A DNA stretch of 64,000 nucleotides from a phage: assembly GCA_012178725.1 (NCBI GenBank), contig GCA_012178725.1_3030.1; one strand, written 5' to 3'. The notes beneath the pieces were generated by a model, which did not search any database, was not told where the DNA came from, and saw only the letters and a list, made by a program, of their open reading frames with translations. The position numbers and the translations under genes were made by a program. The number at the start of each line of letters is the position of its first letter. Position 1 is the first letter of the stretch. Below are positions 9,833 to 46,396 of the stretch, piece by piece.

Positions 9833-9850
9833 TCCTTAAAAGGAGGGTCT

Positions 9851-11802: not shown

Positions 11803-12263
11803 TAGTAAAGGTCCTCAGAGTAAAGTTCTTTTTCACTACCACCACGTTCAATACGTACTTGTCCAGCGTAAGTTGCAATAATCATTGCTTCTTCACGTGT
11901 CCAATAATTACTATATTGGTCAATAAATCCTTGGTCATCATCGCAAACTTGCTGAGTAACTAATTGAGGTTTAACTACATCTAAAACTTCTGCCATATCT
12001 TTAGAATAATGACGAGCACCTGGAATAATAAGAGTTCGTCCATCTTTTAATTTAAAACGATTGGCTGCGCAAACAATCCGTCGTTGATACTTTTGGTTTT
12101 CATCCCAATATGCAGTCTGCCAACAGATTTCAGGAACTTCTTTCAGAATATCTTCTTCTGTGCATTTATAACCATGCGCTTTAAATTTTTCAACAAGACT
12201 TTCTGGAGTCTCACGAGATAAAGGAACATTCAGCATTTTTAAACGATTAATAAATGGGTTCAT
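11802..12263 (-). CDS. Hypothetical protein (153 aa), arn.x region
   Basis: ORF with overlapping start/stop junctions. Confidence 0.6.
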
Positions 12264-12589
12264 TTAAACCATCCTTTAATACGCTGCCACAAAGTTTTCT
12301 GTTGAGCTTTGTTAACACCAATTGAACGAATAACTGGTTGAGATTCCTGGAATTCTTTATAATCAGCAAGGTAAATTTCGTAAGCTGCATCCGTAAATGA
12401 ACTTATCGCTGCCATAAAATTATTGCGAATACCTACTGGAGCATCTTTACTTTCACGAATAATCATGTATTTACCAGTCTTAATCTTTACGATAGTTCCA
12501 AGATAAGCTCCATGGTACCAGATGTCCCATCCCTCTTGAGTGGGTTCTGCGCAACGACGAAGTTCATTGACAATTTCTAACTTGTTCAT
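12260..12589 (-). CDS. Hypothetical protein (109 aa), arn.x region
   Basis: ATGA overlap with upstream gene. Confidence 0.6.
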
Positions 12590-12599
12590 TATTTATTCC

Positions 12600-13235
12600 T
12601 CACAGTTCAGATGCTACAGTGATTACAGCTTCAATGTTTTCTGCCGAGCGTTTAATGTCAAGATACACATTACCGTTTTTAGCGATTTTACATGACATTC
12701 CGATGTCAGTAAATTTCTGAATATGATGTTCCATCATTTTGTATCCAAAAATTCGCATATTTCCATTATTGTTAATTTCAAAATTACGAATTCCGTGAGT
12801 ACGTTTTTCTAAAATAGCGAGATAGTTACTGCGATAAGTTTCAACCTTTTTAAGAACAAATCCATTTTCATCTAAAAGTTTTAACATGAGGTCTTTATCT
12901 TCTTCCATATCAGAAGTAATTTCACGAGCTTTACGAGTTGCTCGTTTTTTCAGTAGTTCCGGAGCATTTTCCTGTGCATATAAAGTTGCTGCGTTTGAAA
13001 TAATATCCTGAGCTTCACCTGTAATGATTAATCCATCACCAGATTTCTCCACCAGGCCTTTTTTAATCAATACCCCAATATTACTATTAACTACTGCGTT
13101 ACCTAAATCTGGATGTACCTCACGAACTTCTACAGCTGTAATGAAATCTTTCTTAGCAATGGTAATTAAAATCGCAGCAGTTTTTTCATTCAGAACATCG
13201 TTAGAAGCTTTGATGATATAAGTTACTTTAGACAT
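12600..13235 (-). CDS. motA: Middle-promoter transcription activator MotA
   Basis: 211-aa ORF; length and sequence as T4 MotA. Confidence 0.93.
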   Translation of the reverse strand: MSKVTYIIKASNDVLNEKTAAILITIAKKDFITAVEVREVHPDLGNAVVNSNIGVLIKKGLVEKSGDGLIITGEAQDIISNAATLYAQENAPELLKKRATRKAREITSDMEEDKDLMLKLLDENGFVLKKVETYRSNYLAILEKRTHGIRNFEINNNGNMRIFGYKMMEHHIQKFTDIGMSCKIAKNGNVYLDIKRSAENIEAVITVASEL

Positions 13236-13276
13236 TTTCTAATCTCCGTAATTCTGTATCAGTAGTTGATAGTTGT

Positions 13277-13306
13277 ATAGTACCACAGTATGCTTTGGTT
13301 GTAAAC
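13277..13306 (-). promoter_or_regulatory. Early promoter (GTTTAC-N18-TACTAT) upstream of motA
   Basis: Reverse strand reads GTTTACaaccaaagcatactgtggTACTAT with an A/T-rich upstream tract. Confidence 0.6.
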
Positions 13307-13321
13307 CGTTTTGTGAAAAAA

Positions 13322-13357
13322 TTTTTAAAATAAAAAAGGGAGAGCCTCGGCTCTCCC
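13322..13357 (-). terminator. Intrinsic terminator after gene 52/motA.1
   Basis: gggagagc/gctctccc stem, then TTTTTTATTTT on the - strand. Confidence 0.65.
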
Positions 13358-13362
13358 TAAAA

Positions 13363-13512
13363 TTACTGCATGACTGTGATAACTGTCATGATAACACGTT
13401 GAATTCCGAACGCAAGAAGACCTCCTGCTATGGCTGGAACAACGCCTAAACCCGCCAGTAAAATGCTACCAGATACTAATGCAGCGCTTGTAATACCAAT
13501 GAATGGACTCAT
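13363..13512 (-). CDS. Small hydrophobic ORF (49 aa) in the motA.1 position
   Basis: Hand-called MSPFIGITSAALVSGSILLAGLGVVPAIAGG...; ATGA overlap with the gene 52 stop. Confidence 0.4.
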   Translation of the reverse strand: MSPFIGITSAALVSGSILLAGLGVVPAIAGGLLAFGIQRVIMTVITVMQ

Positions 13513-14837
13513 TTGATTTCCTCTAAATCTTTGGTGTATTCGGTAACTACATCAGTAGTTTTCCAATATTCGTTTTCTTCTTTTTTAGCTTTAGCTTCTT
13601 CAGCAAGTTTCTTTGCTTCATCGGAAGTCATATGAAAAATATTCATTCCAACTAGTTTATCAACATAAGAAGAATACATATCGATTTTCGAAAGTTCTTC
13701 GGTCAGTTCTTTACGAGTTTTACCCTGTACAACAATTTCACCTGAAATTACTTTCTTAATGAAATGTGCCTTGGCAAAGGCTAAACGAAAAGCTGACTCA
13801 GTTTCTTTGATTTTGTTATCAATTCGTTTTTGGACATAAGTTTTACGAACTTCAACAAAGTCTTTAATTAAATCAACTACGTTATCGTAAACTTGTAGTT
13901 TTCCTTTCTCATTAATAACCGTAATATTCTGAGAACGACGCTCAATCAACCCGAAGTCTTTCATAATTTTTGCGTGGCGTTCTTCTTCATTATCGCTCAA
14001 AGAATATTCTTTACGGAATTTAACTTTGAATCCAAAACCGTGCTCACCGCAAGCATCATCCCATGTAATGAAGCCTTTATCTTCAAGTGGGTCTAAAATT
14101 TTACTCACATAAGTTTCACGATCATACTTATACGGAATCTCAGTGATATGCATTTGAGTTCGTGAAGTAAACTTATATGTTCCACGAATTTCATATTGCC
14201 CATCAATTTCAACGACTTCACCACGAAATTCTGGGAATTCTACCTTCGGTTTAGTTACTTTCTTTCCTTGAAGAGCTTGCAGTACAGCTTTCTTAACAGA
14301 AGAAACACTATGAGGAAGAATGTAAGTTGCATAACCAGTTGCAATACCGGAAACACCATTAAGAAGAACAGTAGGAATAATAGGCAAATAGAAAGCAGGC
14401 GGAATGTGTTCTTTATCTTGATGTACCGGAGCATATTCAGTATCTTTATATACGTTATAGAAATTTTTACTTACACGAGCAAAAATATAACGACTTGCTG
14501 CTGCTTTTTGGACGGTACGAGAACCAAAGTTTCCTTGACCATCTAACAGAGGAAAGTTATTATTCCAAGTGTTAGCCATCAAAGCACCTGCGTCTTGCGC
14601 AGAGTTTTCACCATGATGATATCCAAGGTCCGCTACACCGCCTGCGATAGAAGCGAGTTTGTGAAACTTATCTTTATTTCCTCGTGCCAAATCAAGAGCT
14701 CGAGCAATAACAAATCGTTGAACTGGCTTAAATCCATCAATCATATTTGGAATGGCACGATTTTCAACCGTGTACATAGCATAAGCCAATGCTTCATTAT
14801 CAATGATACTTTTTAAATCGCGATTATTCAGTTGCAT
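13509..14837 (-). CDS. 52: DNA topoisomerase II medium subunit gp52
   Basis: 442-aa ORF matching T4 gp52 (GyrA-like) in length and sequence as recalled. Confidence 0.95.
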   Translation of the reverse strand: MQLNNRDLKSIIDNEALAYAMYTVENRAIPNMIDGFKPVQRFVIARALDLARGNKDKFHKLASIAGGVADLGYHHGENSAQDAGALMANTWNNNFPLLDGQGNFGSRTVQKAAASRYIFARVSKNFYNVYKDTEYAPVHQDKEHIPPAFYLPIIPTVLLNGVSGIATGYATYILPHSVSSVKKAVLQALQGKKVTKPKVEFPEFRGEVVEIDGQYEIRGTYKFTSRTQMHITEIPYKYDRETYVSKILDPLEDKGFITWDDACGEHGFGFKVKFRKEYSLSDNEEERHAKIMKDFGLIERRSQNITVINEKGKLQVYDNVVDLIKDFVEVRKTYVQKRIDNKIKETESAFRLAFAKAHFIKKVISGEIVVQGKTRKELTEELSKIDMYSSYVDKLVGMNIFHMTSDEAKKLAEEAKAKKEENEYWKTTDVVTEYTKDLEEIK

Positions 14838-14841
14838 AAAT

Positions 14842-14982
14842 TTACCATACTAGTGAATGTAGTGCCATAATAACATCAGAAATGAAAAGCACGACTTGAA
14901 TTAATCCGAACATTACTCCATAATATAGTGCTACTAATAAAGTAGCAAGGGCTAATGAATAGCCCAAGATTTTCTTAATCAT
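14842..14982 (-). CDS. Small membrane ORF (46 aa) in the 52.1 position
   Basis: Hand-called MIKKILGYSLALATLLVALYYGVMFGLIQ...; start overlaps the ac stop. Confidence 0.4.
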   Translation of the reverse strand: MIKKILGYSLALATLLVALYYGVMFGLIQVVLFISDVIMALHSLVW

Positions 14983-15133
14983 TAGTAGATAACAACACAA
15001 ATGTTAAATATGCACACATACCCTGGGCTAAAGCTTGCGAAAACACGCTGCTGGCATCAATACAGATAGTTAAAACACATGCTACTATCCAACAAATAAA
15101 TGAAATAACTCCTAATAATTTTGCAATATTCAT
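14975..15133 (-). CDS. ac: Small membrane protein in the ac position (52 aa)
   Basis: Hand-called MNIAKLLGVISFICWIVACVLTIC...; GAGGAAA ribosome-binding site; size and position as T4 ac. Confidence 0.5.
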   Translation of the reverse strand: MNIAKLLGVISFICWIVACVLTICIDASSVFSQALAQGMCAYLTFVLLSTND

Positions 15134-15140
15134 ATTTTCC

Positions 15141-15221
15141 TCACTGGCGTCCGAAGACGCCTTTAGTTTTAAGATTATTACGATAGAACTGCATCACATG
15201 TTCGTTATGGAAATTACTCAT
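15141..15221 (-). CDS. stp: Stp-position 26-aa peptide
   Basis: Hand-called [26 protein letters not shown]; ATG overlaps the ndd stop (TAATG); T4 Stp is 26 aa in this position. Confidence 0.6.
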
Positions 15222-15679
15222 TAATATGCCTGCAAAACAAATTTAAAGTTATCAGCCAACATACGGTTCATTTCTTCAAGTGTTTGATACTCAGAATGAT
15301 GATTACGAGTAAACGCCAAAGCTAACTGACCTTTACCAAATCCTGTCGTCAGAGGTTTCATCTTAGAAGCAGGCAGATAAAATACTGTGTATGGAACATT
15401 GTTATTTGCAATAGTACGTGCAAGCTGAGACCGACGTTGACGAATATGACTTAGAACTGCACTGAATCCTTGCTTAGAACGCTGATTACCTACATAAAAT
15501 CGTGCAGACACACATGGATTACTAAATGGACGACCATCTAATTTACTTACTAAAAAGTAAAATCCAGGTTTAGATAAAATGTCTTTATGCGGAGTTCCCA
15601 AAAACCATTCACCGCCCTTGATTGTGCCAATAACAGTTGCGCCTGCATTATTCAGATCAGTAACAGTCATGTATTTCAT
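15221..15679 (-). CDS. ndd: Nucleoid disruption protein Ndd
   Basis: ORF-track frame trimmed to the [13 protein letters not shown] start (152 aa, GAGGAAA ribosome-binding site); matches T4 Ndd. Confidence 0.9.
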
Positions 15680-15739
15680 ATTAATTTCCTCTAAATTATT
15701 TTCTACTCCAAGGCCGCATGAATACACGCGGCCATTAAA

Positions 15740-15955
15740 TTAATCGTCGCAGTCGACGCTCAATTCCCAAAACTCTTCTACGGTATAAGTTTCAATATCA
15801 TTTTCAATACAGAAACGTTCATTACTATTGTTTGCTAAAGTAGCGTTAACTGTCATTTTCTCGCTGGTACTCTTAAGAGGTGAAATACGAATTAACTGAT
15901 CACCGTTATCTAAACAAAAAATTTCACCAACTTTTACATCTTTAAAACTTTTCAT
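15740..15955 (-). CDS. Hypothetical protein (71 aa), ndd.x region
   Basis: ORF in operon orientation. Confidence 0.55.
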   Translation of the reverse strand: MKSFKDVKVGEIFCLDNGDQLIRISPLKSTSEKMTVNATLANNSNERFCIENDIETYTVEEFWELSVDCDD

Positions 15956-15963
15956 AATTCACC

Positions 15964-16074
15964 TCAAGGAGTATAAAATCCGAATGCAGTTGTTGACCAT
16001 CCCATCCAGTATGGGAAATTTGCACCAATGTAAAACATAAGAATATAAAACCAACCGCTCAGCAAATTCATCAT
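15964..16074 (-). CDS. Hydrophobic micropeptide (36 aa)
   Basis: Hand-called MMNLLSGWFYILMFYIGANFPYWMGW...; ATGA overlap with upstream stop. Confidence 0.35.
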   Translation of the reverse strand: MMNLLSGWFYILMFYIGANFPYWMGWSTTAFGFYTP

Positions 16075-16268
16075 TTTACACCGTTCCAAATTGTTTCAAC
16101 CACGGATTTTAAGCCATTTTGATGAATGTCCATTCCAACTACCGCCATCAAATAGATTCCAACTACAACTGAACCTAAGGCAAAAATCAGCATGAAAATG
16201 AATAAAGCCGGAAAAATATTATCGAAAAACCATTCAATAAATGTAAAAGCACTGCGTTTACGCTTCAT
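16071..16268 (-). CDS. Small membrane protein (65 aa)
   Basis: ORF-track frame trimmed to MKRKRSAFTF start, which has a GAGGA ribosome-binding site; one predicted membrane helix. Confidence 0.5.
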   Translation of the reverse strand: MKRKRSAFTFIEWFFDNIFPALFIFMLIFALGSVVVGIYLMAVVGMDIHQNGLKSVVETIWNGVK

Positions 16269-16275
16269 ATTTTCC

Positions 16276-16389
16276 TCACATAAATCCAAAGTAAACGTTT
16301 AATACATCAATCATTAAAACGATTGGGAATATACTCAAAACAACTAAAATTATAATTATATTCCATATAGCTTTAATAATCTTTTTCAT
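16276..16389 (-). CDS. Hydrophobic micropeptide (37 aa)
   Basis: MKKIIKAIWNIIIILVVLSIFPIV...; GGAGGA 7 nt upstream; the track's 82-aa version begins at a TTG inside the promoter. Confidence 0.45.
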   Translation of the reverse strand: MKKIIKAIWNIIIILVVLSIFPIVLMIDVLNVYFGFM

Positions 16390-16417
16390 TTTGTGTTCCT
16401 CCGTGGTTGATAGGGTA

Positions 16418-16447
16418 ATAATACCACAGAGGAACAGTCTTGTAAAC
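16418..16447 (-). promoter_or_regulatory. Early promoter (GTTTAC-N18-TATTAT)
   Basis: Canonical T4 early promoter architecture directly upstream of the 37-aa ORF. Confidence 0.6.
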
Positions 16448-16696
16448 AACTTTTTTAAAAATATTCGTAATAAATGTGAATACCAATCACTACTGCCGAA
16501 ACTTGCGCAACCCACCACGCACAAGCAATAAGTACAGAATTAAAAATTTTCATAATAACCTCATCACAAAAGTAAATGTTAAACAAATTACTGGAATACT
16601 AATTAACCAAACAAAACACCACCACAATGAACTCATAGTTCAATCTCAGCGATTTTCATTTTATTCTCCAAATCTGTATCAGTATTTGATAGTTGT

Positions 16697-16726
16697 ATAG
16701 TACCACGGTCCTTGTGGTATGTAAAC
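16697..16726 (-). promoter_or_regulatory. Early promoter (GTTTAC-N18-TACTAT) downstream of denB
   Basis: Same architecture and conserved leader CAACTATCAAATACTGATACAGA. Confidence 0.6.
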
Positions 16727-16741
16727 CATTTTGTGAAATTT

Positions 16742-17299
16742 TTAAATGGAAAGATACCATCCATTGTAGTTGCTTTTTCTTACAACCTTACGAAGGTCTT
16801 CTCTATCACCGATGAACTTCGGAGTGTACTGGATGACACCTGGATGAATTTCTTTAGTGTTGAATATAATTATACAGTCCGCGACCTGGTGATTTAGAAT
16901 GGGCCCTAGATTTATTCCAGAACCATATGGATACTCTCCGCTGCATCCTGTTGTTACAGAAATCCAACGTGAGTCAGTTTGATGTGTCTTAACTTCTACA
17001 CGGAGCCCGCAATATTTTGGATGTGCTAAAACATCCCATGCATATGTGTACGGATCATTGACATCTTCTTGGCCTTTATTGACATATCCGCTTAGCCAAT
17101 CTGCTACAAAAAACTCTGCGTACACAGCGATACGGCATCTTTCGATAACTTCTGTCTTATCCTGATTTGGGTTTTGTTTTAAAGAGTATCTTGCAGTATC
17201 AGCAATTTTGACCTTCATTTCACCAGTCAAGTCACTGTTCGATAGGGTAAATGTCGGAATCTGAAATAGTCTCTGTAGCCCCGGATTCGTTTTCTGCAT
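16742..17299 (-). CDS. denB: Endonuclease IV DenB
   Basis: 185-aa ORF in the denB position next to rIIB; size as T4 DenB. Confidence 0.85.
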   Translation of the reverse strand: MQKTNPGLQRLFQIPTFTLSNSDLTGEMKVKIADTARYSLKQNPNQDKTEVIERCRIAVYAEFFVADWLSGYVNKGQEDVNDPYTYAWDVLAHPKYCGLRVEVKTHQTDSRWISVTTGCSGEYPYGSGINLGPILNHQVADCIIIFNTKEIHPGVIQYTPKFIGDREDLRKVVRKSNYNGWYLSI

Positions 17300-17344
17300 T
17301 TAAACTTTCCTTTATGTCGGAATCACTGATATTCATATAATAAA

Positions 17345-17369
17345 TCATAAAACAAAAGGGCCGAAGCCC
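17345..17369 (-). terminator. Intrinsic terminator (GGGCUUCGGCCC plus U-run)
   Basis: On the - strand gggcttcggccc followed by TTTTGTTTTAT, between denB.1 and denB. Confidence 0.65.
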
Positions 17370-17374
17370 TTATT

Positions 17375-17569
17375 TTATTTGAATTGTGCAATTCTTTTCT
17401 CTAGACATTCAGCATAAGATTTCATTGAGATGAACTGTGAAAGCAGCAGTTCTTGCTCAACTGCACTAACCGTTAGAAACTTTGTGCTTTCTAAAAATTT
17501 GCTCAGTGCATTAATTTTGAGCATTAATTGATCGTATTCTTCTTTTACTCGTGCTTGATAACCTAACAT
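17375..17569 (-). CDS. Hypothetical protein (64 aa), denB.1 position
   Basis: ORF with AAGGAAA ribosome-binding site. Confidence 0.55.
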   Translation of the reverse strand: MLGYQARVKEEYDQLMLKINALSKFLESTKFLTVSAVEQELLLSQFISMKSYAECLEKRIAQFK

Positions 17570-17585
17570 AATTTTCCTTAGTTAA

Positions 17586-17597
17586 GGGCCGAAGCCC
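17586..17597 (-). promoter_or_regulatory. Intercistronic CUUCGG hairpin at the rIIB 3' end
   Basis: gggccgaagccc overlapping the rIIB stop; no U-run on the transcribed strand. Confidence 0.4.
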
Positions 17598-18536
17598 TTA
17601 TTTAAATTGTTCAGTAACGTCTTCAACTACTTCATATTGGCAGGTACGCATTTTAGCATCATTGTAATCAATCGGAATTGATACTACATCACGTGGATGT
17701 ACTTTAACTTTTACAACTCGGCTGGTTGAACTGCCAAAGTGACGAATATAAGATTTAGAACACACATGCAGACCACGAGAACAAGTTTGTGTATCATCGT
17801 CATTCACACGAGTACGCGGCATTTTAACTACTTTACCAGGACTGTTATCAAAGGTATTTGAGTGACAGTCAAAGTAATTGCTGCGAACTACTTTCCAAGC
17901 ATAGAAGTAACCATCTTCTGTAATTTCAATATCGTTTGCTACCAAGAAATCAAAAAGTCGAGATACCGCTTTCTGGCTTGGGTTTTCCAGCAGATTTTCC
18001 AAGAACGGAAAATAAAATTCAAAGTTTTCGCCTTTTTCCATCGAATCAAGAATACGATCAACCAAACCAGACCGCAATTCAATATTTTGATAGAATAAGC
18101 TTCCACCTTCAATTCGAACATCACCGGAAATATATTTTTCAACAGCGCGACGAACATTAATTTTTTGTGCCGCTTCTTCCAACTTATCCGCTACAAGCAG
18201 ATTAAGAATTTCCTGGAAGTTTGAATGAGTATTAGGAGTTGCGTTATAAGTTACACCGTCAACAGTAATTGAAATGAATTTTTTAGATGCATTCCAAATA
18301 ATGTCAGATTTAGCAACTGGAGCAATAACTGCATCGCTATTAACTTTAACTGTAATATCACCACTAATAGTAACTTTAGGGCGTTTAGCTTCTTCAGCAT
18401 TTTTCAAAACACGACGGATTGTGTCAACCGATACACCTTGCCAATCAGCCAATTCCTGTTGAGTGTAATTACCACTTGAATACAGTTTAACAATTTCAGC
18501 TTGTTCGTTTTTGGTCAGGCATTTAATATTGTACAT
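17598..18536 (-). CDS. rIIB: rIIB protein
   Basis: 312-aa ORF, length and synteny as T4 rIIB. Confidence 0.95.
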   Translation of the reverse strand: MYNIKCLTKNEQAEIVKLYSSGNYTQQELADWQGVSVDTIRRVLKNAEEAKRPKVTISGDITVKVNSDAVIAPVAKSDIIWNASKKFISITVDGVTYNATPNTHSNFQEILNLLVADKLEEAAQKINVRRAVEKYISGDVRIEGGSLFYQNIELRSGLVDRILDSMEKGENFEFYFPFLENLLENPSQKAVSRLFDFLVANDIEITEDGYFYAWKVVRSNYFDCHSNTFDNSPGKVVKMPRTRVNDDDTQTCSRGLHVCSKSYIRHFGSSTSRVVKVKVHPRDVVSIPIDYNDAKMRTCQYEVVEDVTEQFK

Positions 18537-18547
18537 AATTTTCCTTA

Positions 18548-20725
18548 TTAGGCCGCAAGGGCCTTCATAGTTTTAGCGATTTGGGAAACTTCATCATCAC
18601 TTAAAGAGTTGCGATAACCGATGAAGTCGGAAACAATACGGAATTTCTTGGTAAACTCAGCAACCATTTTATCACTGTTTTTTGAAGCATTATTTGATAA
18701 TACATCAAAAAGATTAGTTACTGTCCAGATGTCATGACCGATGGTATCTTTTCCACCATTAAAATATACACCGCGCAATGAACTAACTATATTAGCGAGT
18801 CGTGTATATTCTTCAGAAACTTCATCTGTACTGAAGTACTTCATCATAAAATCTAGTTCAGGATACTTGATAATTTTATCAATATATCGTTGAGCTGAAC
18901 TTGAATAACCTACGTACTTATCATAATCTACATCATCAAAAGCATCTACATATAAATCACGCAAAGCTTCAAAAATACATTGGCACTGACCGAGTTCTTT
19001 TACCTTTTTCTGTAAAAGCGGACGAATAACATAAAATTCATTAATGCCAATAAGATTAGCCATACGAATCAAAATATTCATAGATGGATGACAAAGAGAT
19101 GTAGTACCATCCATAGAGAAAATATCAGAACGATGCATATACGCTACATAACCAGTAATTTCATCTGCTTCTGATGTGAGCGTAAATAGTTCCTCTTTTT
19201 CCCATCGCCCATCTTTAATTTCAAATTTAAATGCTGTAGCAGCTTTAGGACGAGGAGCTTTACTTTTAACTACCTTTGGAATATAGCTTTTAACTAAAGC
19301 TTCAATTTCTGACAAATAATGAATGTTAACTTCATCACTTTCAAACATCGCCATAATATCAGGAAGTAAATCAATCTGCGATTCTACTTCCGGATTAATA
19401 AACAGAAGACGCTCATTGTGATGAATATTCAAAGTGTTATTAAATTCACTATCATCTAACGCGTGTGCTAATCCACGGACAATATTAACACGATTTTTAA
19501 TATTATCAATAACGATATTAATTTTTGTTGCATTAATACCAAACAGACGATAACTTGATGCAACGGCTGAAGTTTCATGACTTTGCTTAATGCGCTTCAG
19601 TCGAGGGTCAAGATTTACTTCATACACAACTCCTGCATTACATAACTTACTATCAGGTTCAAACATGCTTTGCATCTTCTTATATGACAGATTTTTAGTC
19701 GTAAATTTGACTGAATTACTAATCATATAATCTCGAGCAGAATATCCCATCTTCATCAATTCACGATATGTGTGACGAGGAGATGTAGATTCTTTAAATC
19801 GTTTTACATCTTCATTAAATGCTTTCTCACTGAGTTCTTTAACTCGTTCAATAATATTTTTACGAGTGCGATCATCCAGTGAAAGAGCCTCGCGAGATGG
19901 AGCAATATCAAGTGAACCCATTGGAAACTTAATGTAATTCACTTCATTGCGAATGCTTAGCCAGTTACGGTCTCTAATAACACCATCGATAGGATAAACA
20001 ATACCGCCATAGATAGCATACAATCCGCCGCGATCAGGCCAGTATCTTTCTGGATTTACACCGTAATAGTCATCAAAATCTGGAAAATAATCAATTTCGC
20101 GGTCAAGACCATTAATGATAGCCAAATCTTTGAATGGTCGCATGATATAAGAAACTTCATAAGCAAAGTTTCTAAAGTCTTTTTCTTCAACTGGAACTAC
20201 AATTTCAATACCAGTTTTATCATCTGGACCCATTTCTTTTACGAATGTAGGTTTAATCTGTGGACCATCACCATCCATATAAGCTACATAACCACGAATT
20301 TCACCTTTATGATACGAAGTAATACTAAATGTATCAGTATAACTAAACGGAGATTTAGAACCTAAACCAAATCCGCCAATGAAATCGTTAGATTCAGCCT
20401 TAGATGAACTGAAGTATGAATTATACAACCCAGGAGAATTATCATCACCTTGAATATCAAAATCACTCATACCCGGACCAAAATCTCGACAAACAAATCG
20501 TGGGTCTAAACGTCCAGGAATTTGTATGATAAATTTTTCAGGATTTCCATTAAGTGCATGAGCATCAATCATGTTAGTAATCAATTCACGGACTACTGCG
20601 CGAATCTTGTTTGTATACAAATCAGATGATAGAATTTTAAATACTTTAGGATTTGCTGCGATGCTAAATGCTTTTGATTTAGAACCATTACCAAGAATTG
20701 TTTCTTTTTCAGTGGTGATAATCAT
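18548..20725 (-). CDS. rIIA: rIIA protein
   Basis: 725-aa ORF, length, sequence and synteny as T4 rIIA. Confidence 0.95.
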
Positions 20726-20735
20726 AATTTCCTCA

Positions 20736-20939
20736 TTAATTCATATTACGTTTAATAACTTCGGCAACTTCTAGTAGTTCATCTTTAGTTGCAGTGTCGG
20801 ATTGAATTTTATCTCTAATATCTTTAAAGCGGTTTTTAAATTCTTCGGCTTCTCCCATATCGAAAAAGCGTTGAATGATTCTATATTCTCGATGAACTGC
20901 TTTATCAAAAAGTTCTAAATTTACTTTATATGATTTCAT
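20736..20939 (-). CDS. Hypothetical protein (67 aa), rIIA.1 position
   Basis: ORF immediately upstream of rIIA. Confidence 0.6.
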
Positions 20940-20964
20940 TTCAATATCCTCATTTGCCCAATTA

Positions 20965-20994
20965 ATTATACCACATCCTTGTGGTAAAGTAAAC
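20965..20994 (-). promoter_or_regulatory. Early promoter (GTTTAC-N18-TATAAT) upstream of rIIA.1/rIIA
   Basis: Reverse strand reads GTTTACtttaccacaaggatgtggTATAAT; the -35 overlaps the gene 39 stop. Confidence 0.65.
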
Positions 20995-22811
20995 TACTGG
21001 CTCATCCATTCTTTACGAAGGTCAGCATTATCTCCCATGAGCATTTCAAAAAGCTCTTTCCAGTTCTCAGGAAGTTTAACAACATCATATACTGGATTTT
21101 GAATCATCTCACGATATTCAGATTTTTCCAAAGAGCCAAGTCCTTTAATATAACGGATGCTATGTTTAGGTAGAGCATCTTTGGCACTCTCATATTCAGC
21201 GACTGTATAAAACCATTCTTGTTTTTTACCGACCTGAGCGATGATTACAGGAGTTTTGACAAAGCGAATTCGTCCTTGCTCAAACAGTTCTGGCCAATTA
21301 CTAAAAAATCCAAGAAGAGAAGGATAAATGCTTCCTAGACCATCATGGTCAGCATCAGTCATAATAGCAATATTATGATAATTCAAGTTTTCAGCTTTTT
21401 CACCAAGAACTAGACCAGTGATTGCGCAAATATCAAACAGTTCTTTGTTTTTAAGCATATCTGCATAAGACATACCCCAGCTATTAAGAACTTTACCACG
21501 CAATGGATAACCACCGTGAAGTTCTTTATCACGAACATCAATAAGATATCCGATAGCAGAATCACCCTCAGTCAAGAAAAGAGTAGTGTCAGCATCTTTA
21601 CCGCAAAGATTCGCTTTGATATGTTTATGAACCTTAGCTTTAGAAGCCTTTTTAGCTGCTTTAGTTTCTGCTGCTTTTTCTGCCGCCAATTTACGAGCCA
21701 AAGCAGCTTCAATAATCGGCATTAGAATTGCTTCATTATTTAGAATAGCACGTGAAATCTTTTTAGCATCAAGTTGAATATGACTACGGATTTCACCAAA
21801 TGGAGAAGTCAAACGCTCTTTAGTTTGAGAATCAAATCGCATGTTTTTCATATCACGAACAAACATAACGATAGTCAAACATTCTTTGACACGCGCTTTG
21901 GTTACATCAATTTTGAACTTACGTTTGATTTGTGGAATAAGGTCTTCACAAATATCATCCATAACACAGTCAATGTGATGGCCACCATTCTTAGTATGAA
22001 TGTTATTCACATAAGTTAATTGACGAAAACCATCCGGTGAACGACCAACTGCAATAGAACAATTTTCTTGTTCTTGAACGATAGCATGCTCATCATATTG
22101 GCGTGCATATTTCTTAAAATTACCCTGAACCTTTTTACCATTAAAGGTAAATTGAATATCAGGATAAACAACAGCAAGTGTCTGGAGACGATCTAGTGTA
22201 ATGTCAAGATAAACTTGGGACAGCTCATTAGTTTCAAATGACATAAAATCAGGAATGAAAGTAACACGAGTTCCTTTCCATTTTCCTGGAATAGTTTCCC
22301 ATGATTTATTTTCCATGCCATTTGAACAACGAACTACAATATTATTTTGACCATCGCCAGTTTCACCAACAAACATCACAGAAAAAATGTTAGTTAAACT
22401 AGAACCAACACCGTTCATACCGCCGGTGACGCGTTCTTTATCATCACCGAAGTTACCACCTGCTTTTGGAATAGTCCATGCAGCAACAGGACCAGGAATT
22501 TCTTCACCGGTAGGTGTTTTAACCATCGCTTGTGGAATACCGCGACCGTTATCTTCAACTGTTACTTGATTGTTTTTAATAGTAACGTTAATTTTATTTG
22601 CGAATTTAAACTTAGTACGAATACCTTCATCTACTGAGTTATCGATAATTTCATCAATAAGCTTAACAAGACCAGGTACATACTGAACACTTTCCCATTT
22701 ACCAAACAGAAAGCGCTCATGCATTTCATTAGCAGAAGAACCAATGTACATGCCGCTACGCTTTTTGATATGTTCAATATCGCTCAGAATTTTAATTTCA
22801 TTCTTAATCAT
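20994..22811 (-). CDS. 39: DNA topoisomerase II large subunit gp39, uninterrupted
   Basis: 605-aa ORF from MIKNEIKIL (the track's first M is a GTG one codon upstream) with GyrB ATPase and Toprim regions in one frame. Confidence 0.93.
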   Translation of the reverse strand: MIKNEIKILSDIEHIKKRSGMYIGSSANEMHERFLFGKWESVQYVPGLVKLIDEIIDNSVDEGIRTKFKFANKINVTIKNNQVTVEDNGRGIPQAMVKTPTGEEIPGPVAAWTIPKAGGNFGDDKERVTGGMNGVGSSLTNIFSVMFVGETGDGQNNIVVRCSNGMENKSWETIPGKWKGTRVTFIPDFMSFETNELSQVYLDITLDRLQTLAVVYPDIQFTFNGKKVQGNFKKYARQYDEHAIVQEQENCSIAVGRSPDGFRQLTYVNNIHTKNGGHHIDCVMDDICEDLIPQIKRKFKIDVTKARVKECLTIVMFVRDMKNMRFDSQTKERLTSPFGEIRSHIQLDAKKISRAILNNEAILMPIIEAALARKLAAEKAAETKAAKKASKAKVHKHIKANLCGKDADTTLFLTEGDSAIGYLIDVRDKELHGGYPLRGKVLNSWGMSYADMLKNKELFDICAITGLVLGEKAENLNYHNIAIMTDADHDGLGSIYPSLLGFFSNWPELFEQGRIRFVKTPVIIAQVGKKQEWFYTVAEYESAKDALPKHSIRYIKGLGSLEKSEYREMIQNPVYDVVKLPENWKELFEMLMGDNADLRKEWMSQ

Positions 22812-33949: not shown

Positions 33950-33979
33950 GTAATTCTCCTTTTATTTAAATTACATGAT

Positions 33980-33987
33980 TATTTATA
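33980..33987 (-). promoter_or_regulatory. Late promoter (TATAAATA) for soc
   Basis: Exact TATAAATA on the - strand about 30 nt upstream of the soc ATG. Confidence 0.7.
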
Positions 33988-34032
33988 ATAAATTCTCGCG
34001 GCTTTTAAGTCGTCGTTTATTTAAACGAGCTA

Positions 34033-34551
34033 TTAATAGCCTCGGTCTTGACGAGCGAAATTTTCAGCATTTTTCAGATAATAAAGTTTAAATATTTCTT
34101 CAGCTGACATTCCAAGAGCAATAAATTTATTCATGAAAAAGTGAAATTGGTCAATCAGTTCAAATTTAATTTCAAGCTGATCTTCAGGAGATAAGTCTTG
34201 AATTTTCTTGGATTGCATTTCAGAATAACGTTTCTTCCAAGGTTTCCATACGGCAGAAGCTTCTTTTTCACCATTACTCATACCACCAAGAGAAGTATAT
34301 AGCTCGCGAGTTTCATCTGCGATATAATCGTCTTGGTTTCGCAACCAAGCAAGAACTTCTCCTGCAGTTTCAAGTGAATCAGGATGACGATTTGTTTCTG
34401 GTTTATCATTAGCCAAACGAATCTGTAAATGCCGCTGCATATCAAGCATAACCTGCAGTGGGTCAATATTGTGCATAATATTCTCAGCATATGCACGAGT
34501 TGCTTTATCAACACCTTCGATCAAATGAGCGCATTCATTAAAGTGAGCCAT
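34033..34551 (-). CDS. 56: dCTPase/dUTPase gp56
   Basis: ORF-track frame trimmed to MAHFNECAHLIEGVD (172 aa, AGGAAA ribosome-binding site); matches T4 gp56. Confidence 0.9.
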   Translation of the reverse strand: MAHFNECAHLIEGVDKATRAYAENIMHNIDPLQVMLDMQRHLQIRLANDKPETNRHPDSLETAGEVLAWLRNQDDYIADETRELYTSLGGMSNGEKEASAVWKPWKKRYSEMQSKKIQDLSPEDQLEIKFELIDQFHFFMNKFIALGMSAEEIFKLYYLKNAENFARQDRGY

Positions 34552-34622
34552 TATTTTTCCTTTCAATTCATGGGTTAGTAGATTAATTATACAATAAATA
34601 TATAAAGCAATAAGGAGGACAT

Positions 34623-34823
34623 ATGGTACAAAAATTAATGGCACTTGTTAATGCCATAAAAGGTAATAAAAAACGTATAGCTTTTACTATTTCTGCTATG
34701 GTAGGAATTTTACTCTGGAACTTTATTCTATCACCTGTTGCAATTGCACATGGTATTAATATTCCAGTAGTTACTCTTGATACATTTGTAGATTTAGCAT
34801 TTGCTTTAGTTGGGTTGATTTAA
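34623..34823 (+). CDS. Small membrane protein (66 aa), divergent orientation
   Basis: AAGGAGG ribosome-binding site 5 nt before ATG; two hydrophobic segments; stop overlaps the gene 61 stop (TTAA). Confidence 0.55.
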   Translation: MVQKLMALVNAIKGNKKRIAFTISAMVGILLWNFILSPVAIAHGINIPVVTLDTFVDLAFALVGLI

Positions 34824-35848
34824 ATCTTAGCATATTTAGATAGCCGCATTTTAGCCATCAACCCCTGGGCAATATTATTTTTCATATATTCCATAATTTG
34901 TTCAGGGGTTGCACCTTCCTTTCTAATCATATCATTAACATCTTTTGATTTCCAGGGAGATTTATCCCAAAACATAACCCTTTCTCCTGCATCAACTAAT
35001 TTAGTCATTCGCTTAATAGTGTCAGGATGACGAGGTTCATTATCTAAAACCCACACTCGTCTATCTTTAAATGGAACAACTTCTAGGTCTAATTGACCAC
35101 CCGTAATAGCTATACCATTTTCAATAAAAAGTGAATCTATAGGTCCTTCTAGAACATATACATCACCATCTTTAACTCGTTCGACTCCATAGATTTTTGT
35201 TGCTTCAGGATAAGCTTTGATGGTGATATATTTTTGGGGAGCATCTTTCTTTAATGCACGTCCTTGAAAAGACTCAGCTTTTCCATTAGCATTATAAATT
35301 GGAATAACAAGACGAGGCTCAGGTATTTCCTTTTTATATGTTCCCGGTGCTATACTATTAACTAATTTAGGCCATTCGGTTGTAAACCAAAGATATTTCC
35401 ATTTATCCTTTGGAATACAACGAGCTTTTACATATTTTATAATTGGATGGTCTTCCGCCAATTTATCTAATCTAACACATGACAGAAGAGATTTAATTAT
35501 TTTCTTCTCAGGTTGTTTAGGAAGTTCTTTAGGTTTTTCTACTGGACGACTTTTACCTTTTTCTTTTCTTATTTCAAAGATATACTCACGATATAAATCG
35601 GGTTCAAACTCCTTTAAATATATTCCGATTGGCGCATGATAGTTACAGTTATAACAATGAATATTTCCTTCATTATTATCGCCATAATACCATCCACGAG
35701 CTTTATTCTGGTCGGTTTTTGAATCTCCACAAACAGGGCATCTAAACCGTAATTTAAAAGTTGAACTATTATTTACTTGTGTGAATTTAGGTAAATGAGC
35801 TAATGCACGGTATGCAAACTCATTATCAATCCAAGGTATTGATGACAT
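34820..35848 (-). CDS. 61: DNA primase gp61
   Basis: 342-aa ORF with zinc ribbon (CPVC...CYNC) and Toprim region; length as T4 gp61. Confidence 0.95.
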   Translation of the reverse strand: MSSIPWIDNEFAYRALAHLPKFTQVNNSSTFKLRFRCPVCGDSKTDQNKARGWYYGDNNEGNIHCYNCNYHAPIGIYLKEFEPDLYREYIFEIRKEKGKSRPVEKPKELPKQPEKKIIKSLLSCVRLDKLAEDHPIIKYVKARCIPKDKWKYLWFTTEWPKLVNSIAPGTYKKEIPEPRLVIPIYNANGKAESFQGRALKKDAPQKYITIKAYPEATKIYGVERVKDGDVYVLEGPIDSLFIENGIAITGGQLDLEVVPFKDRRVWVLDNEPRHPDTIKRMTKLVDAGERVMFWDKSPWKSKDVNDMIRKEGATPEQIMEYMKNNIAQGLMAKMRLSKYAKI

Positions 35849-36015: not shown

Positions 36016-36061
36016 ATTAACCTCTATTCATAAAAGCATTAAAAATTTGGTCATCAATAGA
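36013..36061 (-). repeat. Direct repeat copy 1 (49 bp): gene tail, stop and next ATG
   Basis: catattaaCctctattcataaaagcattaaaaatttggtcatcaataga; 48/49 identical to 36371-36419. Confidence 0.85.
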
Positions 36062-36373
36062 TGGTGCAGTAATATTTTCTGCATCATTTAGCAAATCATT
36101 AATTTCATCAAATAGCATAACACATGTACCTTTATTTCCTGTAATTGTTACTGCGCAATTACGAACGTTTTCTTTATTAAATTTTAGGTTAATATTTTCG
36201 TAATGAAAATCCTTTAATGCTGAATATATTTTTAAAATAAAATTGTCTTTTACTACAATAAACCCAACCTCACTATTAAAACGTGGTTCATGGAAACTGT
36301 AATAAACCTTTTCATCTATAAAATCGTATGAAATTTTTTCCATTTTTAAATATGAAAATTCAGAACTATACAT
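36017..36373 (-). CDS. Hypothetical protein (118 aa), paralog A
   Basis: Ends SIDDQIFNAFMNRG, the same tail as the neighbouring 208-aa protein. Confidence 0.55.
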   Translation of the reverse strand: MYSSEFSYLKMEKISYDFIDEKVYYSFHEPRFNSEVGFIVVKDNFILKIYSALKDFHYENINLKFNKENVRNCAVTITGNKGTCVMLFDEINDLLNDAENITAPSIDDQIFNAFMNRG

Positions 36374-36419
36374 ATTAATCTCTATTCATAAAAGCATTAA
36401 AAATTTGGTCATCAATAGA
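36371..36419 (-). repeat. Direct repeat copy 2 (49 bp)
   Basis: See copy 1. Confidence 0.85.
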
Positions 36420-37001
36420 AACATTTACTTTAGACTGTTTTTCAGATGGCAATTCATATCCACATATTACAATTTTATGATCAATATCAAAATACACAGA
36501 AGCAATATGATTAATGATATTTTCAGTGAAGTCTAAATCGACATCAATATCTTTTTGACCAAAGCCCAAAGGATAAATAATGCGAGTAATTCGATTATCT
36601 TTAACAAAGATTCCACCGACATACTCTGTACTGCGTTTAAAGTCTACACGCCGACGAAATGAAAAATATTCAGGCTCTTTATGAGCTCGGCTCATAGGAC
36701 ACAACGAATAACTAGAATAAGAGATGTCAAATCCTACGCCTTCGATATGAGCCAAAGTGTCATGATTAAACCAATTATAATCGTACGCCAAATCCATTAG
36801 ATTATAATATGTAAAAGGCACCGGATTAACATCATTAGTCACAAGCATGTAATTAGCAACTGCTATAATTTCATTGTTTTTAACGAATACAAACCGTGAT
36901 TGATGCGAATGACCTGGACCCGCGTTTTCACGATTAATGATATAACACTGGGCACCTTTATATTTGTATGTATCTTTGCACTTGTGCATTTGATAGAGCA
37001 T
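36375..37001 (-). CDS. Hypothetical protein (208 aa), paralog B
   Basis: Ends SIDDQIFNAFMNRD; 61.2 position. Confidence 0.6.
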   Translation of the reverse strand: MLYQMHKCKDTYKYKGAQCYIINRENAGPGHSHQSRFVFVKNNEIIAVANYMLVTNDVNPVPFTYYNLMDLAYDYNWFNHDTLAHIEGVGFDISYSSYSLCPMSRAHKEPEYFSFRRRVDFKRSTEYVGGIFVKDNRITRIIYPLGFGQKDIDVDLDFTENIINHIASVYFDIDHKIVICGYELPSEKQSKVNVSIDDQIFNAFMNRD

Positions 37002-43699: not shown

Positions 43700-46396
43700 T
43701 CAGCCAAACAGGAAGTCTAACGAAGCTTTTTCTTCATAGTCCATACCAGCCGATTCACACATACCCGCAAGCGGTTTAACAAACGATTTTTGGAACAAAG
43801 TTGAGTAGTCAATCCAAGACAGTACGTCAGAACGAATTTCTTTTGGAAGTTCTGTGCCCGACGGCCAAGCAATACACTTGTCACCAAATGGATTTCCTTC
43901 ACGTAATGGAAGAACCATTACCTTATTTCCATCCAAAATTGGAGCTACACCTAAACCGCTAACAGCTCGACGATAAGTTAGCACACCACGAATATGGAAC
44001 GGGCATTTAAATCCTGGCCAACCTTTATCATCATATTTCGCTATATCGTTCGCAGTTTTTACTTCAGCAATAACTTTATAGTCAAGTTGACGATATTCTT
44101 TCTCGAAGTTCTTGTAATATTCTTGGACAGACTCTTCACCTTCCTGAAGAATACGACGAATACTTTCTTCAAGAGCTTCTTGGACCGCTTTAGGCGTTGA
44201 ACTTTGCTGAGTTTCCATACCCATGATTTTTAGATGCGGTTCAGCAAATCGCTTATCTTCCATATCATAAACATTCAGAGCATAACGCTTTTTCGCTTTC
44301 CAAAATCCACCAACGCCCTTTGAACCAAGCGGAGGGCAAGAAATAGCTTCACGGTCCATATGCATCAGATGCTCGCGGTTATTCATATAATCACATAACT
44401 CACGATATGCAACATCAATCATAGGTTCCATCTTTTTCTTACCGAACTGATTCATAAATTCAACTAAATCGTTCTGCTCTTTGAATCGGTCAAGACCAAC
44501 TTTTTCAATAACTTTATCTACACAAACATATACCGAATCAGTATCACCTGCTGCAATGAAATCTTCACCATTAGTTCCGCATACTTTATTCAGATATTCA
44601 TTAATTTTACGAGCAATCCACTGAATACCGACTTGGCCAAAAATTGTGATAGCAGTAGCATTTCGCAAATCATAGTAACGGAAATGAATATTACCAAGAG
44701 CACCATAAAGACTGTTAATGAGAATTTTACGGTTCAGCTGATTTGTGTTAGCAAGTGTAGCAGCTTTTTCACATTCCTCAATCAGACTATTGAGAACAGA
44801 TTCAGTATAATTCGATAGCTCATTTAAGAAATCATCACTGAACTTAACATATCGTTCAACTTCTGGTTTAGTTGAACAGGACCCTGCGCCTTTCATAATA
44901 ATCTTTTTAATAGCTTCGGCATTCATTTCTTCAGCGAACATTTTCTTTTTCCAATCTTTACGCTGGAAAAATACTTTAGCGATTTCCTTTGGAATGATAC
45001 CTTCTTGATGCTTATCATACATCCATCCATTCGGAGAACAAGAATATTCATCACTTGGTTTAGGAGCTGTTCCTGCGATATATTCATGAATTGGATGAAC
45101 TTTAAACTGTCCACGAATAGTCTCAGGACTAATGTTAACCTGACGAATAATGCTCGGATACAGAGACGTCAAGTCAAAACTCATAATATATCGACGAGCA
45201 ATTGGTTTAGGTTCAAACACAAATGCACCCGGAAAACTCTGTTTAACGTGCGAACCTTGTTGAGGAATAACCTTATGTTCACCTTTCAATGAGTTAAAAA
45301 TAATAGCATCCCAAGTTTTAATAGGACTCATTACACCAGAAAAAGGCATTTTAGCGTAATAAGACATACTTAAAACTAGATCGATAAACCCGCGAATTTT
45401 ATCAATTGCTTGAACTGATTCTACGTCAATGATGTTATAACTAATGTATCGTTGATGATTAGTCTCACGAAGTTTATTAATAGGACCGTCGTATGGTAAT
45501 TTACCTTTTTTGGTTTCATGTTGAGCAACTGATTCCAAAGAGAATGACGGCAAATTAGTAAAAGCGAATTTCTTGTACAAATCTAAATAATCAAGAATAG
45601 ATACGCCATCAATAGAATAAATTTCTTTGCTACCGTACATATTTTGAATTAGTTTAGATTTTACTCGACCGATTGGAGAGAAACGTTTCATACTGCGTTC
45701 GCCCAGAATCATTTTAACACGATTCATGATATACGGAACGTCAAATCCCTCAATATTCCAACCAGTAAAAATAGCAGGTCGTTTCTGTTCCCAGAGATTG
45801 ATATATTCCATGAGCATATCACGCTCATTATCGAATGGCATATAAATTACTCGGTCAAGAATTTCTTGAGGAACTTCATCACCACCTTCACAGTCAAGCT
45901 TAGCAGCTAACTTTGCATCCCATTTTGATACTGAACCGTACATTGAATTCAAAAGGTCGAAAACATAAAAACGATCGTCAATTGAATCGTAATGAGTGAT
46001 AGCATCAATTTCATATTCAGCTTTCATTGGGTCAGGAAATTTATCACCAGTAACCTCAATGTCACAGTTAGCTACACGAACAAATTTTCGGTCATAAACA
46101 ATTTCTGAACCATATGTATCACTGATATAAGCGAGTTTAAAATCGTTCATACCGAGAGCTTCAAGACCGATGTCTTCCATTCGCTTCATCCAATCTCGAG
46201 CATCTTTCATTGATGGAAATTTTTGAGGAGCACAGTTTTTACCATAGATGTCTTTGTATTTTGACTCTTCCTTACAATGCCTAAACATAGTCGGAAGATA
46301 TTCTACTTCACGGGTACGTTCCTTTCCATTTTCATCAATATAACGTTCAACAATGTTATTTCCGACTGTTTCAATAGAGATATAAAATTCTTTCAT
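43700..46396 (-). CDS. 43: DNA polymerase gp43
   Basis: 898-aa ORF with family B polymerase motifs (DTDS, YGDTDS-like); length as T4 gp43. Confidence 0.97.
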   Translation of the reverse strand: MKEFYISIETVGNNIVERYIDENGKERTREVEYLPTMFRHCKEESKYKDIYGKNCAPQKFPSMKDARDWMKRMEDIGLEALGMNDFKLAYISDTYGSEIVYDRKFVRVANCDIEVTGDKFPDPMKAEYEIDAITHYDSIDDRFYVFDLLNSMYGSVSKWDAKLAAKLDCEGGDEVPQEILDRVIYMPFDNERDMLMEYINLWEQKRPAIFTGWNIEGFDVPYIMNRVKMILGERSMKRFSPIGRVKSKLIQNMYGSKEIYSIDGVSILDYLDLYKKFAFTNLPSFSLESVAQHETKKGKLPYDGPINKLRETNHQRYISYNIIDVESVQAIDKIRGFIDLVLSMSYYAKMPFSGVMSPIKTWDAIIFNSLKGEHKVIPQQGSHVKQSFPGAFVFEPKPIARRYIMSFDLTSLYPSIIRQVNISPETIRGQFKVHPIHEYIAGTAPKPSDEYSCSPNGWMYDKHQEGIIPKEIAKVFFQRKDWKKKMFAEEMNAEAIKKIIMKGAGSCSTKPEVERYVKFSDDFLNELSNYTESVLNSLIEECEKAATLANTNQLNRKILINSLYGALGNIHFRYYDLRNATAITIFGQVGIQWIARKINEYLNKVCGTNGEDFIAAGDTDSVYVCVDKVIEKVGLDRFKEQNDLVEFMNQFGKKKMEPMIDVAYRELCDYMNNREHLMHMDREAISCPPLGSKGVGGFWKAKKRYALNVYDMEDKRFAEPHLKIMGMETQQSSTPKAVQEALEESIRRILQEGEESVQEYYKNFEKEYRQLDYKVIAEVKTANDIAKYDDKGWPGFKCPFHIRGVLTYRRAVSGLGVAPILDGNKVMVLPLREGNPFGDKCIAWPSGTELPKEIRSDVLSWIDYSTLFQKSFVKPLAGMCESAGMDYEEKASLDFLFG

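Follow-up and report, generated by a model that had tools for sequence, protein, structure and literature searches.

The 66-aa open reading frame (ORF) that runs on the + strand between genes 56 and 61 of this phage is a genuine, conserved and syntenic gene, selected at the protein level. It is the gene named dam.1 in T4, and the 268 bp that separate genes 56 and 61 hold this gene, a probable late promoter that serves it and the putative divergent promoter of gene 56, with the dam cassette of T4 missing. All in all, this is an ordinary, already annotated hypothetical gene beside a common presence/absence polymorphism of dam, of little import as a discovery since the ORF has long been on deposit; what is mildly new is only that the late-type promoter is conserved and that it is nested within the gene 56/oriA middle promoter.

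The dam.1 gene and its conservation

The window (the whole 64-kb stretch of DNA that was analysed) corresponds to the early region of a phage of the T4 type (Tequatrovirus), about 97% identical over a 25-kb stretch around the locus to Escherichia phage AndreasVesalius and similar records. The features considered in this study are as follows.

34033–34551, - strand: gene 56 (dCTPase/dUTPase), 172 aa, with its ATG at 34551 (ORF list)
34586–34611, - strand: putative MotA-type middle promoter of gene 56 (read from the sequence)
34593–34600, + strand: putative gp55-dependent late promoter AATAAATA, matching TATAAATA at seven of eight positions (motif conservation)
34612–34618, + strand: Shine-Dalgarno (SD) sequence AAGGAGG, followed by ACAT (4 nt) and then ATG (sequence)
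34623–34823, + strand: 66-aa ORF, equivalent to T4 dam.1, RB32ORF030w and RB69ORF029w; PHROG 2024 (ORF list, profile match)
34638–34657, - strand: weak hairpin with a T-run, inside the ORF (terminator scan; low confidence)
34820–35848, - strand: gene 61 (DNA primase), 342 aa, with its stop at 34820–34822 (ORF list)
34820–34823, both strands: TTAA, the stop overlap of the convergent 66-aa ORF and gene 61 (sequence)

The product of gene 56 matches PHROG 173 (nucleoside triphosphate pyrophosphohydrolase; E = 1.7e-44) and is called gp56 in the annotation of relatives. That of gene 61 matches the DNA primases of PHROG 47 (E = 8e-106), and primase is also its name in relatives. The boundaries of the two genes leave an interval of 268 bp (34552–34819), just as an earlier note on this DNA had it. 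The note had described within that interval a + strand ORF of 66 aa, which the ORF list gives with its ATG at 34623 and its TAA at 34821–34823, and a near-perfect ribosome-binding site, which is indeed present, with a spacing to the ATG of four nucleotides rather than the five claimed when the whole heptamer is counted (a trivial difference). It had also remarked that the ORF and the convergent gene 61 overlap in their stop codons, and the sequence bears this out: the TAA of gene 61 is the reverse complement of 34820–34822, and TTAA is common to both genes. An identical 4-nt overlap with gene 61 occurs in T4T, RB14, MM02, S16, Merlin, CIP9 and QL01.

The ORF is widespread. A megablast search with positions 34000–35100 matched 526 phage records, 330 of them with the whole 56-ORF-61 stretch contiguous, and a tblastn search with the ORF found 693 phage records, 687 at a coverage of at least 80% and 503 at an identity of at least 90%. 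In T4T (HM137666) it is annotated as dam.1 (ADJ39749.1), between dam and 61, and is 98.5% identical to the window ORF; across Tequatrovirus the identity is 98.5–100%, with the same length, position, SD sequence and upstream ATAAATA. The RB14 copy is annotated as RB32ORF030w, “similar to RB69ORF029w”. T4 and the window differ on the left side of the ORF, where T4 has the dam cassette between gene 56 and dam.1, whereas the ORF of the window adjoins the gene 56 promoter. In the RefSeq record of T4 (NC_000866), the 310-bp gap between dam and 61 has no annotated gene, although alignment shows the ORF to be present there, so a gene conserved in eight genera is missing from the T4 reference record. 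Otherwise the gene is already catalogued, a hypothetical protein having been on deposit since RB69ORF029w (2006) and T4T dam.1 (2010).

The protein matches PHROG 2024 with an E-value of 1.4e-31 (residues 2–66 against profile positions 1–65 of 65), and distant members of the family (P0077–P0079) match the same profile at 3e-21 to 3e-14. Homologous ORFs of 62–69 aa are found in eight Tevenvirinae genera (Tequatro-, Mosig-, Gapriver-, Gelderland-, Moon-, Jiaoda-, Kanagawa- and Dhakavirus), and the + orientation and the position convergent on 61 are kept in all of them, while identity to the window protein drops to about 22–31% in the distant genera. Their alignment shows W32, P38 and G44 to be invariant, N33 and P48 to be nearly so and position 53 to be always Asp or Glu. 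The window protein carries W32, N33, P38, G44, P48 and D53 and has the signature of the family, a basic juxtamembrane stretch and a transmembrane (TM) helix with W-N-[FYL]-x3-P-x5-G-x3-P-x4-[DE]. The dN/dS ratio (Nei-Gojobori) lies between 0.07 and 0.5 in all informative pairs, and within Tequatrovirus there are four synonymous changes versus none or one that is non-synonymous. Each of the nine lineages that were compared has a GGAGG-type SD sequence in this position. Outside the subfamily, in Krischvirus Phi1, genes 56 and 61 are 14 bp apart and the ORF is absent.

The interval might instead be purely regulatory, composed of the gene 56 promoter with oriA and a terminator of gene 61, the ORF being a matter of chance that annotation pipelines have spread. 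The interval does contain a MotA-type promoter and, on the - strand, a weak hairpin followed by a T-run, the ORF is unannotated in NC_000866, and a search of the literature, including the topics of T4 Ribo-seq and mapping of transcription start sites, turned up no paper that names it and no transcript, protein or phenotype data for it. Yet a chance ORF would not be expected to keep a constant length of 62–69 aa, a strong SD sequence, amino-acid conservation down to about 22–30% across eight genera and a dN/dS ratio below 1. The hairpin is not conserved outside Tequatrovirus, and the 14-bp gap of Krischvirus shows that a long regulatory spacer is not needed. The wide conservation, the purifying selection, the SD sequence and the Krischvirus gap therefore exclude a chance ORF in a regulatory spacer for practical purposes. 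The earlier note was right in proposing a real + strand gene, divergent from gene 56, that encodes a small membrane protein.

A profile search of the complete genome of AndreasVesalius found a single copy of the ORF and no paralogue among the other ORFs, Imm included; a paralogous relation to Imm or to any of the other small membrane proteins was accordingly rejected.

Two genomes depart from the usual arrangement on the right side of the ORF. In Escherichia phage DK-13 (Gaprivervirus), a homing-endonuclease gene (2692–3621 of the extracted segment) lies between the ORF and 61, an insertion that abolishes the overlap of stop codons and leaves the ORF intact. In Klebsiella phage Mineola (Jiaodavirus), the ORF and 61 do not overlap, and the 18-bp gap between them (1692–1711 of the extracted segment) contains a GC-rich palindrome, AGGGGCTTTGGCCCCT, that resembles a bidirectional terminator and has no counterpart in the Tequatrovirus arrangement.

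Putative divergent promoters upstream of the ORF

The earlier note had maintained that a + strand gene inside a minus-strand early block needs a promoter of its own, with which I agree, and that none could be identified with confidence, from which I depart: a late-type element, AATAAATA, can be identified upstream of the ORF with reasonable confidence. It ends 22 nt before the ATG. The consensus of T4 late promoters is TATAAATA, at positions -13 to -6. The T at -13 is poorly conserved in late promoters, where the base is commonly A or T (Nolan et al. 2006, PMC1524935), and this variable position is the sole mismatch of AATAAATA. At the level of sequence, the ORF has shortly upstream the TATAAATA-type element by which a late transcription unit is recognized.

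ATAAATA or TTAAATA lies 9–23 nt upstream of the ATG in nine of nine lineages, amid flanks that have diverged, and the core TAAATA is conserved in all nine. The T4 element before dam.1 is GATAAATA, and the Gelderland- and Moonvirus loci have TTAAATA, a match at six of eight positions. The late-type motif accompanies the ORF regardless of what adjoins on the left (gene 56, dam or some other gene): the neighbour differs in T4, Merlin and CIP9, and the motif is still beside the ORF. In some lineages, the overlap of the motif with a promoter on the - strand could contribute to its conservation.

ATAAATA is depleted about fourfold in the window, with nine copies versus 39.6 ± 6.3 expected, and five of the nine are found 18–30 nt upstream of an SD sequence and ATG, those of gene 36, t, soc, gene 49 and the 66-aa ORF. 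The copy before gene 49 is the identical variant, AATAAATA. The same gene-start geometry was found for 25 of the 57 ATAAATA sites (44%) in the AndreasVesalius genome, as compared to 2–9% for eight heptamers of identical base composition that served as controls. Those sites are followed by classical late genes, namely the genes for sheath, tube, portal, gp34 and gp36, t, e, soc, the gene for gp49 and others, and AATAAATA itself appears in that genome also upstream of the genes for gp15, gp49 and inh. From the T4 literature, 36, t, soc and 49 are known to be transcribed late. These late genes with a TATAAATA promoter and the 66-aa ORF have the same ATAAATA upstream of SD sequence and ATG; the late timing of the former is a matter of record, whereas that of the ORF is read from its promoter motif. 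The + strand of the window also encodes tail-fibre genes, as well as t.

Motif conservation, depletion of the heptamer and gene-start geometry together set the match apart from a random one in AT-rich DNA and point to the 66-aa ORF as a late gene, which I consider likely. It would then probably rank among the few late genes located within the early region, driven from AATAAATA by a promoter dependent on gp55, gp33 and gp45, on the same strand as the tail-fibre genes and the holin gene t. A late promoter at the RB69 counterpart is absent from the list of Nolan et al. (2006).

The remaining four ATAAATA sites of the window have no obvious SD sequence and ATG at the distance expected of a late promoter. 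They lie at 5559–5565 and 36573–36579 on the + strand and at 9972–9978 and 12590–12596 on the - strand; two are antisense within t and 61.2, and another directly adjoins the ATG of a 109-aa ORF. These sites may represent late promoters that are internal or antisense, or they may have survived by chance.

Small T4 membrane proteins such as Imm have roles in superinfection exclusion, and the 66-aa ORF, lying in the early region near sp, dmd and other host-interaction genes, might be thought to encode another of the kind, with an Imm-like function in exclusion or a role against host defence and with early or middle expression from an unrecognized + strand promoter. I regard this as unlikely. A promoter scan found no sigma-70-like promoter on the + strand upstream of the ORF, the sequence there shows no evident MotA box in + orientation, the sole conserved upstream element is of the late type, and the protein is unrelated in sequence to the other ORFs of the genome, among them Imm.

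A middle promoter was defined by a MotA box, (a/t)(a/t)TGCTT(t/c)A, situated about 11–13 bp upstream of a sigma-70 -10 element, and such an arrangement is found on the - strand at 34611–34586, with the MotA box ATTGCTTTA at 34611–34603, a spacer of 11 nt and the -10 element TATAAT at 34591–34586. Its T4 counterpart is P(M)16.53, whose mot-box and -10 are annotated in X01416; oriA is annotated at that place in NC_000866, and it is the P(M)16.53 transcript that primes oriA. The layout of box, spacer and TATAAT recurs in the loci of Gaprivervirus, Dhakavirus and Mosigvirus. The putative late element (34593–34600) lies inside the spacer of this divergent middle promoter, about 20 bp being common to the two. 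The late promoter of dam.1 would thus overlap a putative MotA-dependent promoter of gene 56 that in T4 supplies the primer of oriA, and the nested pair would be a compact case of divergent promoters that overlap, each read by a different sigma system.

The hairpin at 34638–34657 is a further candidate for a signal on the - strand, where it forms eight pairs in the RNA, versus six in + strand RNA, as judged by reading the sequence. It may possibly stop transcription coming from gene 61 before the promoter of gene 56 is reached. Its folding energy is -8.9 kcal/mol (z = -1.96), with 12 of 200 shuffled sequences folding as well, and the Mosig-, Dhaka-, Gelderland- and Gaprivervirus loci showed no such hairpin in the corresponding position. 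A - strand terminator within the ORF was set aside as weak and not conserved. A search of Rfam gave no credible match to a known RNA in the 56-61 gap.

It is conceivable that the late + strand RNA is itself the main product, antisense to gene 61 and curbing the synthesis of primase late in infection, with the peptide secondary. Tequatrovirus has no terminator between the ORF and gene 61 and the stop codons overlap, so a late transcript would cover the 3' end of gene 61 in antisense. I hold this to be very improbable, however. The conservation sits at the protein level, and the hairpin in the 18-bp gap of Mineola and the homing-endonuclease gene of DK-13 separate the ORF from 61, so antisense pairing with 61 is not a conserved trait.

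The protein and its possible role

The two hydrophobic segments that the earlier note had reported are evident by Kyte-Doolittle analysis, as two 19-residue segments above 1.6 in residues ~19–42 and ~45–66. The first is present in every homologue and is the only one hydrophobic in all the distant ones, the second appearing just in Tequatro-, Mosig- and Dhakavirus. An AF2 model (based on an alignment of 16 sequences; pLDDT 77) has helices at residues 2–14, 16–42 and 52–63. All five Lys and Arg residues precede the first hydrophobic segment, with none after residue 18, and the only acidic residues, D53 and D57, follow it. Since the positive residues are all N-terminal, the positive-inside rule gives an N-in orientation, which makes the predicted product an N-in protein of the inner membrane. 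A single TM helix, at residues 21–41, has been predicted for RB69ORF029w (Nolan et al. 2006, PMC1524935). Whether there are one or two spans is uncertain, because the second segment is not hydrophobic in distant homologues.

The predicted protein would have a basic, amphipathic N-terminal helix in the cytoplasm and one TM helix with the invariant Trp and the near-invariant Asn (W-N), then the invariant Pro. The tail, G-x3-P-x4-[D/E], with a His before the Gly in most members, would be periplasmic, and in Tequatrovirus hydrophobic enough to form a second membrane-associated helix. The near-invariant Asn within the membrane helix suggests helix-helix association.

Searches for a function by homology in Pfam, NCBIfam and PHROGs led only to PHROG 2024, whose function is unknown. 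Searches of 5.8 billion proteins and an exhaustive profile search of 1.84 billion representatives returned only hypothetical proteins of 56–73 aa, the identifiable sources of which are T4-like phages of Enterobacterales. A fold search of the AF2 model against BFVD found orthologues only.

One orthologue, that of vB_EcoM_OE5505, is named “Holin” in UniRef/BFVD, and the 66-aa protein could in principle be a holin- or pinholin-like lysis effector that produces membrane lesions late in infection. Like a holin it is small, membrane-embedded and probably late, it has at least one predicted TM domain (residues ~19–42), and a distant homologue gives a marginal, partial match to the holin family phrog_11161 (E = 0.012, over 23 residues). 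I nonetheless consider this reading improbable. The holin families of Pfam and NCBIfam are unmatched, and no homologue of a described family emerged from the fold search either. In place of a hydrophilic, highly charged C-terminal domain, the protein ends in ...DLAFALVGLI, all of its Lys and Arg being at the other end. No endolysin or spanin gene adjoins the ORF, whose neighbours encode a dCTPase and a primase and make no lysis cassette. The T holin is already present in the window, at about 9850–10506 behind TATAAATA, and AndreasVesalius has rI, rIII and spanins. The “Holin” label was therefore rejected, as that of a protein without a charged C-terminal tail (here ...ALVGLI) and far from any lysis gene.

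Holins, pinholins and T4 Imm do resemble the 66-aa protein in size (60–85 aa) and in predicted inner-membrane location, but no homology to it is detectable. Imm is the product of an early gene. My best guess, from predicted localization and timing, is that dam.1 encodes a late inner-membrane protein that would take part in some envelope-associated step, for instance lysis timing, lysis inhibition or membrane-bound assembly. More specifically, and this I offer as a doubtful conjecture, it may be a late inner-membrane component of an envelope process specific to T-even phages, acting through its intramembrane Asn and its acidic periplasmic tail, with the interlocked promoters of dam.1 and gene 56 mutually exclusive in time.

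Presence and absence of dam

The gene order of T4 is 56 - dam - dam.1 - 61, and the earlier note was right to place dam on the - strand between 56 and 61 (NC_000866). It was right as well that dam is absent from the window: a tblastn search with T4 Dam gives a best E-value of 0.8, and DPPY occurs in no frame. Nothing in the 64-kb window has the character of a MethyltransfD12-type Dam (DPPY, FxGxG, ~260 aa, similarity to T4 Dam), and the only motifs near to DPPY are NPPY, DPPF, SPPF and NPPF, all in ORFs unrelated to Dam. What does not hold is the reading, implied by the note, of the ORF as standing in dam's place. Comparison with T4 shows the two genes side by side, and since T4 carries dam and dam.1 together, the ORF is no replacement of dam. 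The ORF of the window has in common with T4 Dam (NP_049647) a chromosomal neighbourhood alone, without sequence relation. The implied oddity of the locus likewise disappears, the same ORF lying beside dam in T4 and the state without dam being the commoner.

The starts of 56 and dam.1 are separated by 952 nt in T4 versus 71 nt in the window. The difference, about 881 nt, corresponds to the 780-nt dam gene plus about 100 nt of its upstream region, a cassette that is absent here as in most relatives. A T4-type Dam (at least 90% identity) occurs in about 182 phage records, at the 56-61 locus in all listed examples, versus about 330 records with a contiguous 56-ORF-61 and no dam. Most Tequatrovirus records lack dam, a dispensable cassette that about a third of them carry between the two promoter elements. 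Seven further Tevenvirinae genera were compared (Mosig-, Gapriver-, Gelderland-, Moon-, Jiaoda-, Kanagawa- and Dhakavirus), and only the locus without dam was seen in them. Lack of dam in the other genera and its greater frequency within Tequatrovirus argue that this state, the commoner one, is probably also ancestral at the 56-61 locus.

The absence extends to a full genome. The complete genome of AndreasVesalius (168,255 bp), the best match over 25 kb, contains no Dam-like sequence anywhere, the best E-value being 0.84 with T4 Dam and 0.22 with a query of E. coli Dam (an approximate sequence). Judging from such relatives, the present phage would have no dam anywhere in its own genome, of which the window is the part covered.

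The order of the regulatory elements also differs. In the window, ATAAATA lies to the left of the MotA box, versus to its right, just outside the box, in T4 and the other genera, and therefore the junction in the Tequatroviruses without dam was remodelled and not cleanly deleted. Breakpoints of the cassette, sought to the exact nucleotide, are not resolvable in a junction so remodelled.

GATC is strongly depleted in the window (76 observed versus 214 expected), in AndreasVesalius, which lacks dam (201 observed versus 559 expected), and in a 10-kb stretch of T4 (12000–22000; 10 observed versus 29 expected). In a ranking made for the AndreasVesalius genome alone, GATC shows the strongest depletion among the sixteen 4-bp palindromes, with a ratio of 0.36. 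Depletion is equal with and without dam and is therefore independent of carrying the gene: Tequatroviruses that lack dam are as strongly depleted as T4, and Dam is not what shapes their GATC content.

Several differences in gene content were noted near the locus. The interval between soc and 56 (33950–34032) measures 83 bp in the window and holds the TATAAATA of soc at 33980–33987 (- strand). Elsewhere the same interval contains the homing endonuclease gene segF (T4), the 66-aa ncORF029c (RB14) or two small ORFs (AndreasVesalius). The window is about 330 bp shorter here than AndreasVesalius, and the interval represents a second hot spot of indels adjoining gene 56.

Beyond gene 61, a 118-aa ORF at 36017–36373 (- strand) is equivalent to RB32ORF033c, “similar to gp61.2”, and lies directly downstream of the full-length, 208-aa 61.2 at 36375–37001 (- strand). 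Both end in ...SIDDQIFNAFMNR[G/D]. T4 has 61.2 alone and RB14 the short form alone, while the window has both, which therefore constitute a tandem pair of partial paralogues here. Finally, AndreasVesalius has at uvsX-42 (44988–45830 of the extracted segment) a beta-alpha-glucosyltransferase of the T2/T6 type, not the beta-gt of T4.
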